Below, in pieces: positions 6,982 to 38,857 of a stretch of DNA of 38,857 nt. Made by a program: the position numbers and the translations under genes. The notes below the pieces were generated by a model. It was not told the DNA's origin. It worked only from the letters and a program-made list of their open reading frames with translations, and did no database searches. Each line of letters opens with the position of its first letter. The first letter of the stretch is position 1. The DNA lies in the NCBI GenBank assembly GCA_964625265.1, contig CAZVAY010000001.1:1-38857 (forward strand), read 5' to 3'. The DNA is from an uncultured Sphingobacteriales bacterium (GTDB taxonomy: Bacteria > Bacteroidota > Bacteroidia > CAILMK01 > JAAYUY01).

Positions 6982-9900
6982 TTATTTTGCAGGCAGGGAA
7001 AAATAAAAGCAGGCACCCTTATCCGGATACCCTTCAGCCCAAAGTTGTCCACCATGCCTGTCAATGATCTTTTGGGCTATAGCCAGCCCTATTCCCGTAC
7101 CTTCATAATCCTTTGTATTGGGGAGGCGATGGAAAACACCCATGATTTTGTCAGCATACTCCTGCTCGAAACCAATACCGTTGTCTTTGATGAAATAAGT
7201 AACAACACCTGGCGACTTCTCCTCCGAACCAATAGTGATTTTTATCACTTTTCTTTTACCACTGTATTTCAGGGCATTTGAAACAAGGTTATCCCACACC
7301 GACCGGATTAAACGTTCGTCACACTGAACTTTAGGCAGGCTACCTATTTTGATATCCACTTTTTTGCCTTCCATGTCCATTTCATTGTCCTGGAGAACAT
7401 GTTCAATCAGCCGGTTCATGTTTACATGTTTTTTGGTCATTTCCTGCCTGCCCACCCTTGAAAGGGCCAGGATATCGTCAATTAGCTTAGCCATCCTGTT
7501 GGATGCTGAAATAACAGTAGAAAAATACCTCAATTGTTCCTTGTCAAGATTATCGCCAAGGGAGTCCCTTAGCATGGCCGAATAGGCATTAATATGCCTG
7601 AGCGGGGCACGGAGGTCGTGAGAAACGGAATAGGCAAACGATTCAAGGTCTTTGTTTGCAGAAACTAACTCAGCCGTCCTTGCCTGAACCATTTCTTCCA
7701 GGTGTTTCCGGTGCATATCGAGTTCATTCCTGAGTTTTTTTTCTTCGGTGATATCTGTTGAAAAAAGAATCAGGTTTTCGACTTTTTTGTTGCGATAAAG
7801 AGGGCCGGCATGATTACTGAAATAACGGGTTCCATTCTTATCGGTATACGTGTTTTCAAAATAAACCGGTTTCTTTGTGGTGAAGACCTGTCTTAGGATT
7901 TTTTCAAACCGGGGTTTTTCATTATCAGCGTAAAAATTTAAAACACTTTGCCCCAAAAACATATCTTTGGTATATCCGGGGTTGGTTTTGTTAATAAAAA
8001 TAATTTTAAGGTCCTTATCTATTAAGGAGATATTTCCGGGGGCATTTTCTCCGAGTGAGCGCCATTTTTCCTCACTCCTTTGAAGTTCCTTTAATGACCC
8101 CATTCTTTCCATTTCCGAAGTTACCCGGTAAGCATATATTATTAGGATTTTTTCTATAAATCCTGCCTCTTCTAAATTTTTGCAGAACAGGGCCACCAGC
8201 AGGCCTATCCGTCTGTTTTCAGAATTTACCAGGGGTATGCCAATATAAGACTTTACCCCCATTTGGGTTAATAAATCGTCTTTAGGAAACATTTTGTCAA
8301 CATCCTGCAAATAAGAACAAGCACCGATACCGATTACGTTTTCGCAAGGGGTTCCGCTAAGGGAGTAGGTGAAATTAGGAAGCAGCTTATCATGATTACA
8401 AACAGCAACTGTTTCCACACTGTGTTCAGATTCTTTGTGTTGCCCTGCAAAAACGTAATCTGCCCTGAGGGTCTCACACAGACCGAGAACACTTTTTTCA
8501 ATAAAATCGACACCAAATGATGCATAAGTGCTTTCTTCCATTTTGTCAATGGCTAATTGCGTGGTTTTTCGCTCGGTAATGTCACGCCAAACCGTGTAGA
8601 TTTGTTTTGTGGAGGGTATATAGGTAAGCGCCACATCAATCCACATTTCTTCGCCCCCGGCATGAGTATGGACCCATTCAAAACGATGCGAGCCATGTTT
8701 AATAGCTGTATCCATCATTCGGATGGCTTTCCTTTTGGAAGAGGGATCATCAGGCTGCCCCGGAGGAGAAAGCTCCCATGGGTGTTTCCCTTCAATATCG
8801 GCCTTGCTTTTGTATCCAAGGAATTTTACTGTGGTTTCATTGCACAAGACAAAAGTATAATCTTCAATGATCAAGGTTGGGTCAGTAGAGTTTTCAAAAA
8901 GTGCACGGTACCTGGCTTCACTGTCACGTATTGCTTTCTCGGCCTTAAGGCGGTTGGTTATATCCCGGATAAAAATATGAATAACTTTTTCCCCGTTGAG
9001 GATACCAAAACCAGCGGGTATCAATTCTCCAAAAAGTATTTTGCCCTCTTTGGTCTTCCACCTGAAATTTGGAAATACTTTAAGGCCTGTGACAATTTCT
9101 TTAAAGGCTTTCCGGTATGCAGGCCTGTCTGCTGGAATGATACCCGGATTATTAAAGAAAGACTGCCCGATAATTTCGCTGGATGAAAAACCTGATTTAT
9201 TTAGGAAAGCCGGATTGACATCAATAATTTCGCCCCTCATTGATGTTGTTACAATGCTGTCTGGTGAACTTTCCACAATTTCCCTGAAATTTTGCTCGCT
9301 TACAATCAATTTGCGTTCAGCTTCTCTTTGTTCAGTGATATCGTGCATGATCACAAGTACAGCCGGCTCCCCTTCAAACTGTATCAGGCTGGAACTGATT
9401 TCAACATCATAGATACGGCCTGTTAATGATTGGGCTTTTGATTCGTATTTCAGATATTTTTTCCGGTTTTTTATACGATTGCGATAAATTTCAGCTACAT
9501 TTTTCTTTTCTTCAGGAGCAACAAAATCAAGAAAACTTCTCCCGATAATTTGAGCTTCTGTTGCCTGGTTGGCTTTGAGGATAGCCTTATTAACAAAAAT
9601 CACAATGCCGTTTTTAATGATAAAGATCATCTCTTTGGCATTTTGTACAACTGTCCGGTATTTGGATTCACTTTCTGCCAGCTCCAGCTCAATGTTTTTT
9701 CTTTCGGTAATGTCCTGATCAGTCCCGATCAATAACAAGGGGTTGTTATTGTTGTCAAAATCAACAGTGCCTTCGGAGTGGATATACCTCGTTTCTCCTG
9801 TTTTTTCATGGATTACCCTGTAATCACAGGAGTAAGGTTTTCCCCTTAAAGCATCCTCCACCTTTTTCTTCAATATCGCCCTGTCTTCTTCGTGGACATG

Positions 9901-34786: not shown

Positions 34787-34839
34787 TATGCTATCTTCAA
34801 TCTTCTTTATTATTTTAAAGGCCTCGGCCCAATAAGCTA

Positions 34840-34847
34840 CAAAGTTA
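34840..34847 (-). promoter_or_regulatory. putative -7 box (TAACTTTG) upstream of secA
   Basis: Minus-strand TAACTTTG fits TAnnTTTG and lies 54 nt upstream of ATG 34786. This is a motif match only. Confidence 0.3.
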
Positions 34848-34935
34848 AGTAATGCAATTAAACAAGATTATATTAATTGGAGAGGCTTTTGGGGGCATTG
34901 TCAATAACTATACCATAGGATATGTTTTTCTGTAC

Positions 34936-35151
34936 TTAGCAATCGGGAATATGTGCTGTAAGGGTTTGTGGAGTAGAATCCTGTCCTCCGACACGAAAAT
35001 TTGAGCGGGCTACAACCCTTGAATACCTACTGAAACCCTTATGGCATATACCCTTTATTACCAACTGGCCTTTCCTTTTATCTGTCTGTATATCAATTTT
35101 TTTAATTGCTTTTGCTGCAATTTTCTTTGACAATGTAAGCCGGATGATCAT
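34936..35151 (-). CDS. hypothetical 71-aa basic protein, start overlapping the Res-like stop (ATGA); may not be a real gene
   Basis: MIIRLTLSKKIAAKAIKKIDIQTDKRKGQ... has 15 K/R against 4 D and no E. The ATG at 35149-35151 overlaps the TGA at 35148-35150, the same coupling geometry as three bona fide gene pairs in this window. I recognise no family. The 3' half has a different base composition and contains inverted repeats. Confidence 0.3.
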   Translation of the reverse strand: MIIRLTLSKKIAAKAIKKIDIQTDKRKGQLVIKGICHKGFSRYSRVVARSNFRVGGQDSTPQTLTAHIPDC

Positions 35152-37682
35152 TTCATCAAATTTTTCAAATCTTCTTCCTCTTTTCCCTGTTCGATCAAAT
35201 AACACTCAATTTTATCGTTTACCTGAAATTCCTTAAAAGGTATTTGCATCTGATAAGATTTAATATTCTTTTGTTGTTTCTGTTCTGTCATTATATCGAG
35301 AACTTTCTTTTTGTAGGTAGTGTCAATGTTACCAAGAAGATGTTCTCCTTTGCTTTCAATGATGTAAACCAATTCCAAATGATTCTCTGCTGTCTTTTTC
35401 GCTGCCACAAAGTCAGGTCTGATTTTATTCTGCTGCCAGCCTTGTATTGAGTACCATTTTCTGTTTACTTTATTCCTGAACCACCAAAGTATCTTTTCCT
35501 GTTTATCAAGTAAGTCGCCAACTTTCCTTTCAAGCGTGTTCATTGCTGTTACTTCAACATCTTCGAACAAATAATATTTGTAAGTGCTTGGAATTGGGCT
35601 TACTGTTATTACGTCTTCTTTTGGAACTTTGACCCCGACTGTATCATCATCGGATACAGCAAGAACAAGATTTTGGGCTTTTAATTCTTCCAAAAATATT
35701 TCTTCTTCCTGTTTTGTCTTTTCGTCCTGAAACTTTTTACATAGCTGAGAAACAATGAAACTGTAATGTTCTTTAAGTTTTTCCTGGCCTATCTTTTCTT
35801 CAATTTGTGATAAGTATTTCGTTCCGATAATTCTTGCCAAAAATGGATTTTCAATTAATTCATTCAGTCTGCGTGTTAAGTAATCAATATTAATTTCTGC
35901 CTTTCCGTTTGTTTGGCTTTGTTCTTCAACAAATGACGCTTTACTCGAATCATCAAGAGTAATGGCAAATGCTTTCCTTTCTTTTGTCTCGTTACTTAAT
36001 GTATTTTCAAGTTTAGTTAAAAACTCATCATCTAATTCGACTTTTGAAAAATCAATTTTGGGCTTAATATCCAGTTCATAGCTAAATCTTCGTTTTTTCC
36101 CTTCTTTATCAACCATTACCCAAACAGGCAAATAAAATGAATGCTGAAATTTCTCGCTGAACTCTCTTTTTATCTTTACTGTTTTGGTAGCGTTTATGGC
36201 TTCATTATCCCGGAATTTCAATTTTGTAACCAGGTCTTCAAGACCTTCATTTTTGAATCCGGTTGAAACCCTGTCTAAAATTTCTCGTGTATCGCCTTTC
36301 GTGTAATAAACATAACTCTCGTCAAGTTCTTTAACACCTGATTTTCTTGCAAACGGTTGTCGTAAAATTCTACCGACCAATTGGGTAACTCCTGTATTTG
36401 AATTCACATTTGGAATAATTCCCAGTATGTAGGCAAAAGAGAAATCCCAACCTTCACGCAATGCTTCTTTTGTAATGATAAAGCGCACAGGACAACCCTG
36501 CGAAAACAGGTTTACATCTTCAATATCATTTTGCGAACTTGTTTTAATTGCAATTTCATCGGGGTTTACTTCTAAGCTAACCAAATATTCTTTAACGTCA
36601 AGACTGTGAACTCTTCCTTTCCCTCTTTGGTCTTTGCCTGTTGCTTCAACTTGCAATAATGCAGTTGGACGAATATAAACGCCTGTATCTTTTTGATATT
36701 GCTTAGCAGTTTCTTCTAATTTTTCCCGATGTTCTTTGATTTCCTTTACCATCGCTTTCCAGTCGTTCTCCTGCTTGCTGATGGGAGGGAGAATGTGCAT
36801 GTCGAGTTTTACCATTTCCTCCTCTTTAAGCTCAAGGCCTGTAATGGTAACTAAAACATTCATTTCGGCTTTTGGCGTAGCAGAAAAACCAAGAACAAAT
36901 TCGGGATTTAAACTATCAATAGTTTTCCGGGCATTTTCAGAAAATACCTTGTGAATTTCATCAATAATTATAAATGGTTTTGAAATGCGGATTGCGTTTC
37001 CTAGACTTGTCATTATTAAAGGTTGTTCTGTGCCAAGTGGTGAAATATAATCAAGGTTTGGAACTTGCTTCAATAACTGTTCGTGCAAGTCGTAACGATT
37101 ATCGGCAGGGAAAAAACTGTCATAGCCGCCACTGTCCTGAAAAACTTTTAACGCTTCTTTTCCATTTTTGCGACTTATGGACTGAATCATAACGAACAGA
37201 ACAACCAAATTTTCTTCAATATCATGGGTTGTTAACCGTTGTCCTTTTTCCAGGATAATAGTTCGGTTTCCGCTACATTGGTCTAATAACTGGCGTAAGG
37301 GATTTCCCTTGTCCCTGATTTTTTGAACTGTTTGGCTGTAAATAGTCTCGCTCGGAACAATCCATACCACAAGCCCCGTGCGTTTTTGAGCAAAAAGGTT
37401 TTGATATTCACGAATTGATTCAACGGCAAGCAAAGTTTTTCCGCCACCTGTCGGCACTTTAATTATCATTCTTGGATAACTATTCCCTAGTCCGTTTGTG
37501 CATCGGTCTATATATTCCAGACTGCTTGTTTGAAAAGTTGTTTGCACCCAATTTAAAGTATGACGCATAGTTGAAGGCAGTGCCTGTTTCGCAATGTCAA
37601 ACGATGTTTTGGTATCACGGGCTGTTTGCAGAAACTGCTTGAGTGCGTTTACAACTTTTATCTGGTATTTTTTCAGGTACAT
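35148..37682 (-). CDS. type III restriction Res-like protein: N-terminal SF2 helicase/ATPase plus C-terminal PD-(D/E)xK nuclease motif
   Basis: 844 aa. Helicase motif I is VPTGGGKT (aa 76-83, about 37434-37457), motif II IIIDEIH (aa 238-244), motif III FSATP (aa 266-270), a motif V-like TKEALREGWD, and motif VI QLVGRILRQP (aa 434-443). The C-terminus WWFRN..GW..IRPDF-x17-IIESKGE has D757/E776/K778 (35349-35414), as in type III Res endonuclease domains. Confidence 0.75.
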   Translation of the reverse strand: MYLKKYQIKVVNALKQFLQTARDTKTSFDIAKQALPSTMRHTLNWVQTTFQTSSLEYIDRCTNGLGNSYPRMIIKVPTGGGKTLLAVESIREYQNLFAQKRTGLVVWIVPSETIYSQTVQKIRDKGNPLRQLLDQCSGNRTIILEKGQRLTTHDIEENLVVLFVMIQSISRKNGKEALKVFQDSGGYDSFFPADNRYDLHEQLLKQVPNLDYISPLGTEQPLIMTSLGNAIRISKPFIIIDEIHKVFSENARKTIDSLNPEFVLGFSATPKAEMNVLVTITGLELKEEEMVKLDMHILPPISKQENDWKAMVKEIKEHREKLEETAKQYQKDTGVYIRPTALLQVEATGKDQRGKGRVHSLDVKEYLVSLEVNPDEIAIKTSSQNDIEDVNLFSQGCPVRFIITKEALREGWDFSFAYILGIIPNVNSNTGVTQLVGRILRQPFARKSGVKELDESYVYYTKGDTREILDRVSTGFKNEGLEDLVTKLKFRDNEAINATKTVKIKREFSEKFQHSFYLPVWVMVDKEGKKRRFSYELDIKPKIDFSKVELDDEFLTKLENTLSNETKERKAFAITLDDSSKASFVEEQSQTNGKAEINIDYLTRRLNELIENPFLARIIGTKYLSQIEEKIGQEKLKEHYSFIVSQLCKKFQDEKTKQEEEIFLEELKAQNLVLAVSDDDTVGVKVPKEDVITVSPIPSTYKYYLFEDVEVTAMNTLERKVGDLLDKQEKILWWFRNKVNRKWYSIQGWQQNKIRPDFVAAKKTAENHLELVYIIESKGEHLLGNIDTTYKKKVLDIMTEQKQQKNIKSYQMQIPFKEFQVNDKIECYLIEQGKEEEDLKNLMK

Positions 37683-37683
37683 A

Positions 37684-38685
37684 TTATTTCTTTTTCCCTA
37701 ATTTCTTTAATTCCCGTTCAATCATTTTCATGGCTTCCGCATCGGTTGAAGCAATTTGCTTTTTTTCGAATTTCTCAAATTCCTTTTCAGCAAGTTCCAC
37801 TGCCAGATGATGAGAAATTTTGCCTGCATCCAGTAATATCTGTTTTTCATTTAAAGTTAGAAAGTCGTGCAATTTCTTTTCCCAGTCAGCCATATACATG
37901 GGTTTTCGTTTGCGGGCTTGCAATTCGGCAAAGCTAAGGTACTGGTCAACAATCAGGTTTAATTCTGTTAATTCATCCTGGGTTAAATAATTTTTAGCAA
38001 CAGAAACATCAGTTTTTCTGATTTTTCCCTTCGGACTGTTTTTCCATGAAGTCAATCCCATGTTTGGTTTATCCGCGTTTGCCCTGTTGTATATTACTTC
38101 GGCTGCGGTATGCCCATGTATTGCCCAATGCATTTTATTTTGCACCGAGGCAAAAAACAGTTGTGCCTGTTCGCTGTTGGGCGAATAGTCAATACTTGTT
38201 GCATAAATATCTTTAATTTTTGCATAGAAAATTTTCTCAGAACTTCGGATATCCCTGATTCTCTCAAGAAGTTCATCAAAATATTGGTTGGTGTGCCCGG
38301 TTTCTTTCAGTCGTTCATCGTTCAGTACAAAACCTTTAATTAAAAACTCTTTGAGTTGCTGGGTCGCCCAAATCCTGAACTGCGTCCCACGGTGTGATTT
38401 TACACGGTAACCAACAGAAATAATTACATCGAGGTTAAAAAATTTGGTTCTGTATTTTTTGCCATCTGAGGCAGTTGTCAAGTATTCCTTTACAACTGAA
38501 TCTTCTTCCAGTTCGCCCTCGCTGAAAATATTACGGATATGCAGACTGATGTTTTGTTTGGTGGTTTGGAATAGTTGAACCATTTGTGATTGTGTAAGCC
38601 AAACGGTTTCATTTTCCAAACGGACCTCAACTTTCGTTTGACCGTCTTCGGTTTGATATAGCAGTATTTCTGTATTTTCTTTCAT
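37684..38685 (-). CDS. RhuM-family protein (function unknown; R-M-associated)
   Basis: 333 aa. N-terminal LLYQTEDGQTKVEVRLENETVWLTQSQMVQLFQTTKQNISLHIRNIF is followed by the core LDVIISVGYRVKSHRGTQFRIWATQQLKEFLIKGFVLNDERLK and HWAIHGHTAAEVI. This matches the RhuM family as I recall it. The stop TAA is 1 nt from the Res-like ATG. Confidence 0.8.
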   Translation of the reverse strand: MKENTEILLYQTEDGQTKVEVRLENETVWLTQSQMVQLFQTTKQNISLHIRNIFSEGELEEDSVVKEYLTTASDGKKYRTKFFNLDVIISVGYRVKSHRGTQFRIWATQQLKEFLIKGFVLNDERLKETGHTNQYFDELLERIRDIRSSEKIFYAKIKDIYATSIDYSPNSEQAQLFFASVQNKMHWAIHGHTAAEVIYNRANADKPNMGLTSWKNSPKGKIRKTDVSVAKNYLTQDELTELNLIVDQYLSFAELQARKRKPMYMADWEKKLHDFLTLNEKQILLDAGKISHHLAVELAEKEFEKFEKKQIASTDAEAMKMIERELKKLGKKK

Positions 38686-38719
38686 CCAGGCATATTGTTG
38701 AGTTCAACAAAATGGTTAA

Positions 38720-38857
38720 TTACCTCCTTTGAAATAAATTATAAGGAATTCCCACATAATCAATCTGATTGTCGCTTAAATATTCCTCATCCAAAAAGCA
38801 TGACGGTGCATAAACAATCCTCTTTTTACCCGGTTGCTGCTGTTTAATTTTTTCGGC
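38720..38857 (-). CDS. 3' end (last 45 codons) of a gene continuing beyond the window; possibly the Mod DNA methyltransferase of the cassette
   Basis: The minus-strand frame is open from the window edge: AEKIKQQQPGKKRIVYAPSCFLDEEYLSDNQIDYVGIPYNLFQRR, with stop TAA at 38720-38722. The tail resembles C-termini of type III/N6-N4 methyltransferases as I recall them. Its position directly upstream of a Res-like gene fits Mod. Identity is an inference from 45 aa plus context. Confidence 0.35.
   Translation of the reverse strand, partial: AEKIKQQQPGKKRIVYAPSCFLDEEYLSDNQIDYVGIPYNLFQRR

Follow-up and report, generated by a model that had tools for sequence, protein, structure and literature searches.

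Does a gene nested inside a restriction-modification (R-M) operon serve the enzyme around it, or does it lead a life of its own? This question is raised by a rhuM gene in the genome of an uncultured Sphingobacteriales bacterium. The stretch of DNA analysed, here called the window, is the entire 38,857-nucleotide (nt) contig CAZVAY010000001.1 (GenBank assembly GCA_964625265.1), and rhuM lies near its end on the minus strand (37684..38685), between the mod and res genes of a type III R-M system. RhuM is among the largest protein families without known biochemistry, and its members are still widely annotated as virulence factors or Fic toxins. The answer proposed here, which is held to be probable with ample room for doubt, favours independence: RhuM would be a mobile single-gene defence candidate, autonomous from the enzyme, that travels in the mod-res junction of a mobile type III cassette as optional cargo.

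Embedding of this kind has been described before. RhuM-like genes were reported in R-M and PrrC loci together with a proposed toxin domain, which may act through protein modification (Anantharaman et al. 2013, PMC3710099), and RhuM family proteins are enriched beside invertible hsdS genes (PMC9881135). The 'guilt-by-embedding' approach defined PDC candidates as genes nested in type I R-M, BREX, and DISARM systems, with a selfish benefit of embedding also mentioned (Payne et al., bioRxiv 10.1101/2024.01.29.577857). The idea of an embedded RhuM effector, raised in the initial annotation of this locus, had been anticipated by the 2013 proposal and by the definition of PDC-S05, the candidate family to which RhuM belongs. 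The locus adds a type III R-M case to the embedding of RhuM in R-M loci already described and is no new kind of system. The same annotation regarded RhuM as a protein without demonstrated biochemical activity. No biochemical study of RhuM was found in the literature, but a phage-defence phenotype has been reported for a PDC-S05 candidate. A cold-seep study reported that one PDC-S05 representative lowered the plating of T7 and T5 on E. coli B by ~1000-fold and of T4 by ~10-fold, in a host said there to lack these candidate systems (bioRxiv 10.1101/2024.09.26.614923).

Identity and operon setting of rhuM

The initial annotation described a 333-amino acid (aa) open reading frame (ORF) with spacings of 34 nt and 1 nt to its neighbours, and its coordinates and both distances are exact when the minus strand is read. 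rhuM is initiated by the ATG at 38685, and a 34-nt spacer (38686..38719, minus strand) separates it from the stop of mod. Its 3' end reads GGG AAA AAG AAA TAA, with the stop at 37684-37686 and a protein ending in ...GKKK. A single T (37683, minus strand) then precedes the res ATG at 37682, giving TAA-T-ATG, a layout typical of translational coupling. Downstream, res (35148..37682, minus strand) encodes an 844-aa type III restriction subunit with an SF2 helicase and a C-terminal PD-ExK motif. Only the 3' end of mod is present upstream (38720..38857, minus strand), comprising its final 45 codons and the TAA at 38720-38722 (...IPYNLFQRR*), as the gene runs off the window at the contig end. A scan that omits Bacteroidota promoters found no promoter- or terminator-like site above shuffle expectation in the gaps between mod, rhuM, and res. 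rhuM probably shares the transcript of the operon, and its translation is probably coupled to that of res.

Profile searches uphold the assignment to the RhuM family made in the initial annotation. The protein matches Pfam PF13310 (Virulence_RhuM) with an E-value of 4.3e-113 and 377 bits against a cut-off of 33.7. The match spans residues 63-310 and covers model positions 1-248 of 252, a full-length family match. PADLOC PDC-S05 (PDLC04851) is matched over residues 3-327 (E 1.5e-146), and the founding member, rhuM of Salmonella pathogenicity island 3 (SPI-3; STM3755), is 49.8% identical over residues 6-322 (tblastn). In an NCBIfam search no model matched RhuM or Res. The ratio of nonsynonymous to synonymous substitution rates (dN/dS) for RhuM is 0.05-0.07 against six relatives, equal to that of Res, and by this measure RhuM is an intact gene under strong purifying selection.

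The operon around rhuM is of type III, as had been supposed. Res matches Pfam ResIII (PF04851, E 3e-17) plus DEAD, and the PADLOC REase_III model PDLC03653 (E 3e-140). Its translation shows a DEIH box and a C-terminal ...RPDFV...IIESKGE... PD-ExK-type motif. Related loci, referred to below by L numbers, supply more of mod. On the contig of L001, which has an identical RhuM, mod extends to 442 aa with a PF01555 N6_N4_Mtase match (E 1e-22), and in L002, whose RhuM is 91% identical, mod is a 552-aa N6_N4_Mtase (PF01555, E 1e-28). Since these two loci show the upstream gene to be an N6_N4 DNA methyltransferase, the mod-rhuM-res order is real, as judged from sequence. The mod orthologues of L002, L084, L085, and L089 are N6_N4_Mtase genes of 540-579 aa. 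These four loci, with RhuM proteins 86-91% identical to that of the window, all contain the same module, each in an unrelated chromosomal context. It consists of a 99-109-aa HTH_3 gene, a variable gene where present, mod, rhuM, and an 844-aa res, with rhuM-res spacings of 1 nt in L002, L085, and L089 and of 4 nt in L084.

The mod-res junction as a cargo slot

Res orthologues provide a view of the same junction in related systems. They were taken from 80 metagenome loci (L091-L170, 65-96% identity), with Mod, RhuM, and Res located in each, and near-identical Res genes were collapsed at >=97% nt identity to leave 48 informative lineages. The junction is empty in 32 of the 48, with the mod stop lying 6-10 nt before the res ATG. 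A DinD homologue of 281-282 aa fills it in five lineages and RhuM in three. Further occupants are an AAA_14/DUF4143 ATPase belonging to PDC-S01 (two lineages), a PDDEXK_3 ('GxxExxY') gene (two), and a minimal nucleotidyltransferase of PDC-S09 (one). The last three lineages have a gap of 67-145 nt without an ORF.

The DinD cargo is 37% identical to E. coli DinD (E 2e-52) and matches Pfam Bro-N as well as PADLOC PDC-S13 (E 3e-118). In L106 it has an ATGA overlap with the mod stop and, at the other end, a TAG-C-ATG junction with res, the same 1-nt coupling as with RhuM. Several insertions in succession are suggested by the junction of L109, where a 23S_rRNA_IVP gene and an AAA_14 gene lie together with a DinD remnant truncated to 111 aa. 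Neither the PDDEXK_3 nor the 23S_rRNA_IVP slot genes have a PADLOC match. The Res of the window is closest to that of an empty system, with a synonymous distance (dS) of 0.42, while RhuM-bearing relatives lie at dS 0.54-2.1. Because the window Res is nearer to the Res of an empty system than to that of any RhuM-bearing relative, gain or loss of cargo is recent. On the strength of these sequence comparisons the mod-res junction is a cargo slot with RhuM as one optional occupant, and the restriction system has no need of RhuM.

A slot of this kind would also suit a selfish or neutral passenger, that is, a RhuM which exploits the permissive, well-expressed junction of a mobile cassette and has no defence role in this organism. 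The slot takes unrelated cargo, including the two gene types without a PADLOC match, two thirds of the orthologous systems are empty, and Payne et al. mention that embedding can bring a selfish benefit. The strong purifying selection on RhuM fits a passenger poorly, as do its 54-76% identity across phyla, reaching an archaeon, and the phage protection that the cold-seep preprint reports for a PDC-S05 candidate. In addition, four of the cargo types belong to families independently flagged as embedded in type I R-M, BREX, or DISARM. A mere passenger is considered quite improbable. The 'guilt-by-embedding' repertoire of those three systems recurs in type III systems, and the same type III enzyme with an empty junction, a RhuM, or a DinD homologue amounts to a clean natural experiment.

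One detail of the slot concerns its upstream edge. In the window (38720-38731, minus strand) the sequence encoding the Mod C-terminus ...FQRR contains a Shine-Dalgarno-like AAGGAGG string before the cargo, as is also the case in L106 and L122. In the closest empty loci (L091, L110) Mod ends in ...FQRNQ* and the string is missing, L121 has AAGGAGA, and other loci vary. The AAGGAGG of the window lies 35-46 nt from the rhuM ATG, too distant to serve rhuM, and may therefore have been left behind by a DinD-type cargo that once occupied the slot.

RhuM inside and outside R-M loci

The wider family was sampled by a scan of one genome per species, which found >600 RhuM loci, and neighbourhoods were studied for the best 80 of these. 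Neighbour families were assigned by Pfam and PADLOC scans and locally built hidden Markov models (HMMs), which replaced BLASTP clustering as the latter was too insensitive. The RhuM proteins of the best 80 loci are 54-76% identical and come from Bacteroidota, Ignavibacteriota, Proteobacteria, Verrucomicrobiota, Planctomycetota, Acidobacteriota, and Bacillota, together with one Methanosarcinales archaeon. The family as a whole comprises 33,286 representatives of 50%-identity clusters at E<=1e-3. RhuM is also carried by 130 plasmids, by Wolbachia phage WO and a Gordonia phage, and by 22 streptococcal phage records, those listed being satellite phages. On an Aliarcobacter plasmid the order is hsdS-hsdM-rhuM-hsdS-KAP-ATPase-hsdR.

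The initial annotation linked RhuM to R-M operons, and the neighbourhood statistics bear this out. Immediate upstream neighbours (Pfam, n=76) include N6_N4_Mtase (4), N6_Mtase/HsdM_N (2), and DpnI (2), and immediate downstream neighbours include ResIII (11), Methylase_S (4), and HSDR_N (2). R-M matches peak directly beside rhuM and fall with distance (21, 8, 6, 6, and 4 at +/-1 to +/-5). With the locally built HMMs, type I components were found within five genes of RhuM in 14 of 81 loci and type III-like components within two genes in nine, about five of which are clear type III. A clean mod-rhuM-res order is present in L002, L010, L039, and L081, while L036 shows rhuM-res at a contig start. 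The association between RhuM and R-M is real, yet it spans only about a quarter of the 81 sampled loci. Other neighbours are highly diverse and range from housekeeping genes and integrases to Cas genes, prokaryotic Argonaute (pAgo), and PARIS-like AriAB.

The embedded copies do not form a group of their own. The five type III Res partners correspond to five PADLOC REase_III models (PDLC03653/03651/03647/03648/03654). The RhuMs embedded beside them are 55-61% identical to each other, against a family median of 55%, and their nearest relatives are in non-R-M or type I/IIG loci. As embedded RhuMs are not each other's closest relatives, repeated independent entry into R-M operons is indicated, with no R-M-specialised subfamily. 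A further RhuM (P0019), 88% identical to that of the window, is solitary: its neighbours are a methyltransferase gene on one side and recX/prfB on the other, and R-M genes are absent within 6 kb of it.

These results divide a further claim, that RhuM is an accessory physically associated with the R-M system. The tight linkage supports it, but an obligate partnership with Mod and Res is unlikely given the two thirds of mod-res junctions that hold no gene. It is also disfavoured by the ~75% of close homologues outside R-M loci, the polyphyly of the embedded copies, and the stand-alone 88% copy.

A specific form of partnership would be a guard of the PrrC kind, in which RhuM is a latent toxin held by Mod/Res and released by a phage anti-restriction protein to cause abortive infection. 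PrrC combines an ABC-ATPase with a HEPN RNase and is described as almost exclusively embedded in type I R-M systems and kept latent by the enzyme (bioRxiv 10.1101/2024.01.29.577857). Like rhuM, the PrrC gene of the EcoprrI hsd operon is an accessory gene that lies within an R-M operon and is dispensable for restriction. rhuM lies inside its operon with translational-coupling spacing, and the mod-rhuM-res order is common to five type III Res subfamilies. In type I operons RhuM also occupies M|S or S|R junctions, and Anantharaman et al. (PMC3710099) suggested that it acts as a toxin in R-M/PrrC loci. Nonetheless, the two differ in important respects. PrrC is described as occurring almost only in R-M operons, whereas R-M loci contain only about one quarter of the RhuM homologues sampled, there is no R-M-specific RhuM clade, and the 88%-identical copy stands alone. 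Searches of RhuM, even at E<=10 on separated halves, gave no Pfam or PADLOC match to an ABC-ATPase or HEPN domain, and no interaction of RhuM with an R-M protein is known. One conserved protein would also need to dock to type I, type IIG, and several unrelated type III enzymes. Finally, a PDC-S05 candidate is reported to be active in E. coli B, said to be free of these candidate systems. A guard role is judged unlikely and sits poorly with the distribution of RhuM.

The stand-alone 88%-identical RhuM is directly upstream of recX, which encodes a RecA regulator (L087:7182-7661). This adjacency is probably coincidental and is recorded because the alternative cargo DinD also regulates the RecA filament.

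Predicted architecture of RhuM

The structure of RhuM was predicted with AlphaFold2. An alignment of 58 close homologues gave a mean predicted local distance difference test score (pLDDT) of 48, while 137 sequences from three sequence clouds raised it to 75, with a predicted template modelling score (pTM) of 0.50. In the latter model, residues 1-110 (38356..38685, minus strand; pLDDT 75-91) are predicted to form a beta-beta-beta-alpha-alpha-beta-beta-alpha domain of the Bro-N/KilA-N-like, winged-helix-like type, which is putatively DNA-binding. Residues 134-333 (37687..38286, minus strand; pLDDT about 70-89) are predicted to be all-helical and hold most of the invariant polar residues. These are R142, R144, R147, D166, Y167, Q182, N183, H186, T193, E196, and K231 in the helical part. 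In alignments of 78 and 137 sequences, the RhuM of the window keeps all family-invariant residues, including W29, G92-Y93-R94, and F103-R104.

Fold and sequence searches were informative for the N-terminal domain of this medium-confidence model. Foldseek against BFVD returned 34 matches with E<1e-3 to Bro-N, KilA-N, 'repressor domain', and Ant-like proteins, for example a 95-aa Bro-N protein with a template modelling (TM) score of 0.69 and a root-mean-square deviation of 3.5. Three homologues gave sub-threshold Pfam matches to HTH_38, HTH_36, and HTH_24 near residues 32-59 when their halves were searched separately, a hint only. Against the Protein Data Bank (PDB) Foldseek found weak matches only, to winged-helix proteins and to DdrC (E 3e-3, TM 0.24-0.32), and with such scores DdrC was not accepted as a relative. 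A PDB sequence search with the single protein and with a 78-sequence profile yielded no meaningful match, the best E-value being about 0.08, to a lysine-rich tail. The structural comparison proposed by the initial annotation, with AlphaFold and Foldseek, was informative for the N-terminal half, for which a Bro-N/KilA-N-like prediction was obtained; the C-terminal half has no recognisable relative.

Two further candidate relationships were rejected. The Fic/Doc label present on some records has no basis in RhuM, as there is no PF02661 match at E<=10 and no Fic/Doc protein among the Foldseek PDB matches. The nearest Fic-like motif, H186-W-A-I-H-G-H-T-A-A-E196, lacks the Asn/Arg of HxFx(D/E)GNGRxxR. 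Homology between RhuM and DinD was non-significant by BLASTP and by hhalign with a single sequence and with a 9-sequence alignment.

A predicted DNA-binding domain in a gene directly upstream of res invites the view that RhuM is an operon regulator, a controller (C) protein analogue that times or tunes res after entry into a new host. However, a separate 99-109-aa HTH_3 gene heads the cassette in the relatives, the usual place of a controller, whereas RhuM has 333 aa and is internal to the operon. Most orthologous systems are without RhuM, and near-identical RhuMs beside unrelated operons and alone are a poor fit to a sequence-specific operon regulator. The conserved 200-residue C-terminal half would also be left unexplained. 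Regulation of res is considered highly improbable, and the predicted DNA-binding domain is instead placed within the reading of RhuM as an independent defence gene.

Natural fusions place an extra Bro-N (DinD-type) or Cro/CI helix-turn-helix (HTH) domain ahead of RhuM. Bro-N(DinD)+RhuM fusion proteins exist, P0374 being confirmed by its Pfam matches, and P0408 is a Cro/CI-HTH+RhuM fusion. The PADLOC model PDLC04871, labelled 'PDC-S05', matches E. coli DinD and the DinD cargo at positions 6-129 and RhuM at positions 130-451. DinD also matches positions 6-268 of the type I 'Specificity' model PDLC03083, implying DinD-HsdS fusions. Two long RhuM proteins with C-terminal PTA_PTB or phosphorylase fragments (P0380, P0383) resemble gene-call chimeras and were ignored. 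The PADLOC PDC-S23 models match RhuM over residues 1-200 only (E 1e-57), at positions 3-203 of ~330-long profiles. This partial match suggests that PDC-S23 is a sister candidate family that shares the head and first helices with RhuM and has a different C-terminal part.

Proposed role and points against it

In the proposed arrangement, rhuM would have lodged in the mod-res junction of a small mobile cassette made up of an HTH_3 controller-like gene, mod, cargo, and res. Given co-transcription and translational coupling, the insertion would leave Res expression intact, and RhuM would be made whenever the R-M system is. RhuM would not be a subunit of the restriction enzyme and would work independently of it, since the RhuM family is mostly outside R-M loci and this R-M family is mostly without RhuM. 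RhuM would gain co-expression and co-transfer from the slot, and the host would gain a second anti-phage layer, for which the reported phenotype of a PDC-S05 candidate is the literature precedent. The predicted Bro-N/KilA-N-like N-terminal domain may bind DNA or a phage DNA-protein complex. The conserved helical C-terminal half may then perform an effector step at the level of DNA metabolism, a step that is a guess since this domain has no informative relative.

Several points weigh against this reading. The phenotype comes from a single preprint and from one randomly chosen PDC-S05 representative, not from the RhuM of the window (bioRxiv 10.1101/2024.09.26.614923). At pLDDT 75 and pTM 0.50 the structural model is of medium confidence, with an unreliable linker at residues 113-140. 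Only predicted structure ties RhuM to Bro-N: its sequence has no Pfam Bro-N match, and hhalign gives a probability of 0.2% against a DinD/Bro-N alignment. For the helical C-terminal half, the PDB sequence profile and fold searches returned no informative relative. The genome sample consists of the 80 closest of >600 matches and is not random. Lastly, five unrelated type III Res subfamilies show the mod-rhuM-res order, with junctions that overlap or span 1-4 nt, and this recurrence could reflect a specific functional tie to Res.

A broader possibility gives the slot itself a function. The type III mod|res junction, and the type I M|S|R junctions, may be dedicated exchange slots for Bro-N-headed DNA-binding proteins of the RhuM and DinD kinds. 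Such proteins would work on DNA alongside restriction: they might, for instance, bind phage DNA that has been cut or is recombining and prevent RecA or another recombinase from rescuing restricted genomes. E. coli DinD is a regulator that acts on the RecA nucleoprotein filament, 'inhibiting postsynaptic RecA filaments' (Uranga et al. 2011, as cited in PMC4457935). DinD/PDC-S13 resembles RhuM in that its homologue occupies the same mod|res slot in five lineages and in combining a Bro-N-type head, which in RhuM is a prediction, with a helical part. It differs in having no significant sequence or profile similarity to RhuM, for which no RecA-related activity is known. This joint role is a long shot. 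If true, it would unite the function of the Salmonella 'virulence' protein RhuM with that of the orphan E. coli SOS protein DinD. The most useful by-products of the analysis are the natural junction variants of one Res lineage and the recurrent RhuM/DinD-type Bro-N pairing.

Comparison with related systems places RhuM closest to the PDC-S05 genes embedded in type I R-M, BREX, and DISARM, which are of the same family and are likewise single co-oriented genes nested in a multi-gene defence system. In both settings the slot is shared with other PDC families, here S13, S01, and S09. The host here differs, being a type III R-M system, a class not screened by Payne et al., with the insertion at mod|res, and orthologous empty sites and alternative cargos are added by this locus. 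Salmonella SPI-3 RhuM (STM3755) has the same length and domain layout as the RhuM of the window, but it is a solitary gene of a pathogenicity island, without R-M genes beside it. We know of no mechanistic basis for its 'virulence' label.

Other features of the locus

The R-M stretch of the window has a G+C content of 0.33-0.39, against 0.40-0.49 in the adjoining DNA. No credible flanking repeats that could be insertion scars were found around rhuM, and transfer RNA (tRNA) and Rfam scans of the window gave no matches. Between the res stop and the secA start is a 361-nt gap (34787-35147), also without a tRNA or Rfam match, whose sole ORF is an 89-aa GTG ORF (34936..35205) that overlaps the res end. 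The inserted cassette may have its downstream edge here.

In the four close relatives the cassette has a second variable position, which follows the HTH_3 controller-like gene and precedes mod. Its occupant is an OLD/GajA-like ATPase-TOPRIM gene in L002 (L002:6574-8307), a gene for a 23S_rRNA_IVP four-helix protein in L084 (L084:3835-4209), and a 174-aa ORF with no Pfam or PADLOC match in L085 (L085:3757-4281); L089 has none.

Two genomes carry a pair of diverged RhuM paralogues in the same locus. They are adjacent in L051 (L051:6751-7788 and 7977-8987), where the extra copy is 53% identical to the protein of the window, and two genes apart in L061 (L061:5786-6820 and 7971-8966), where it is 44% identical. 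Other defence genes also lie close to RhuM, with a PARIS-like AriAB fusion 21 nt upstream of it in Massilibacteroides (L070:6063-7976) and a long pAgo 6 nt downstream of it in Algoriphagus (L075:9024-11123).

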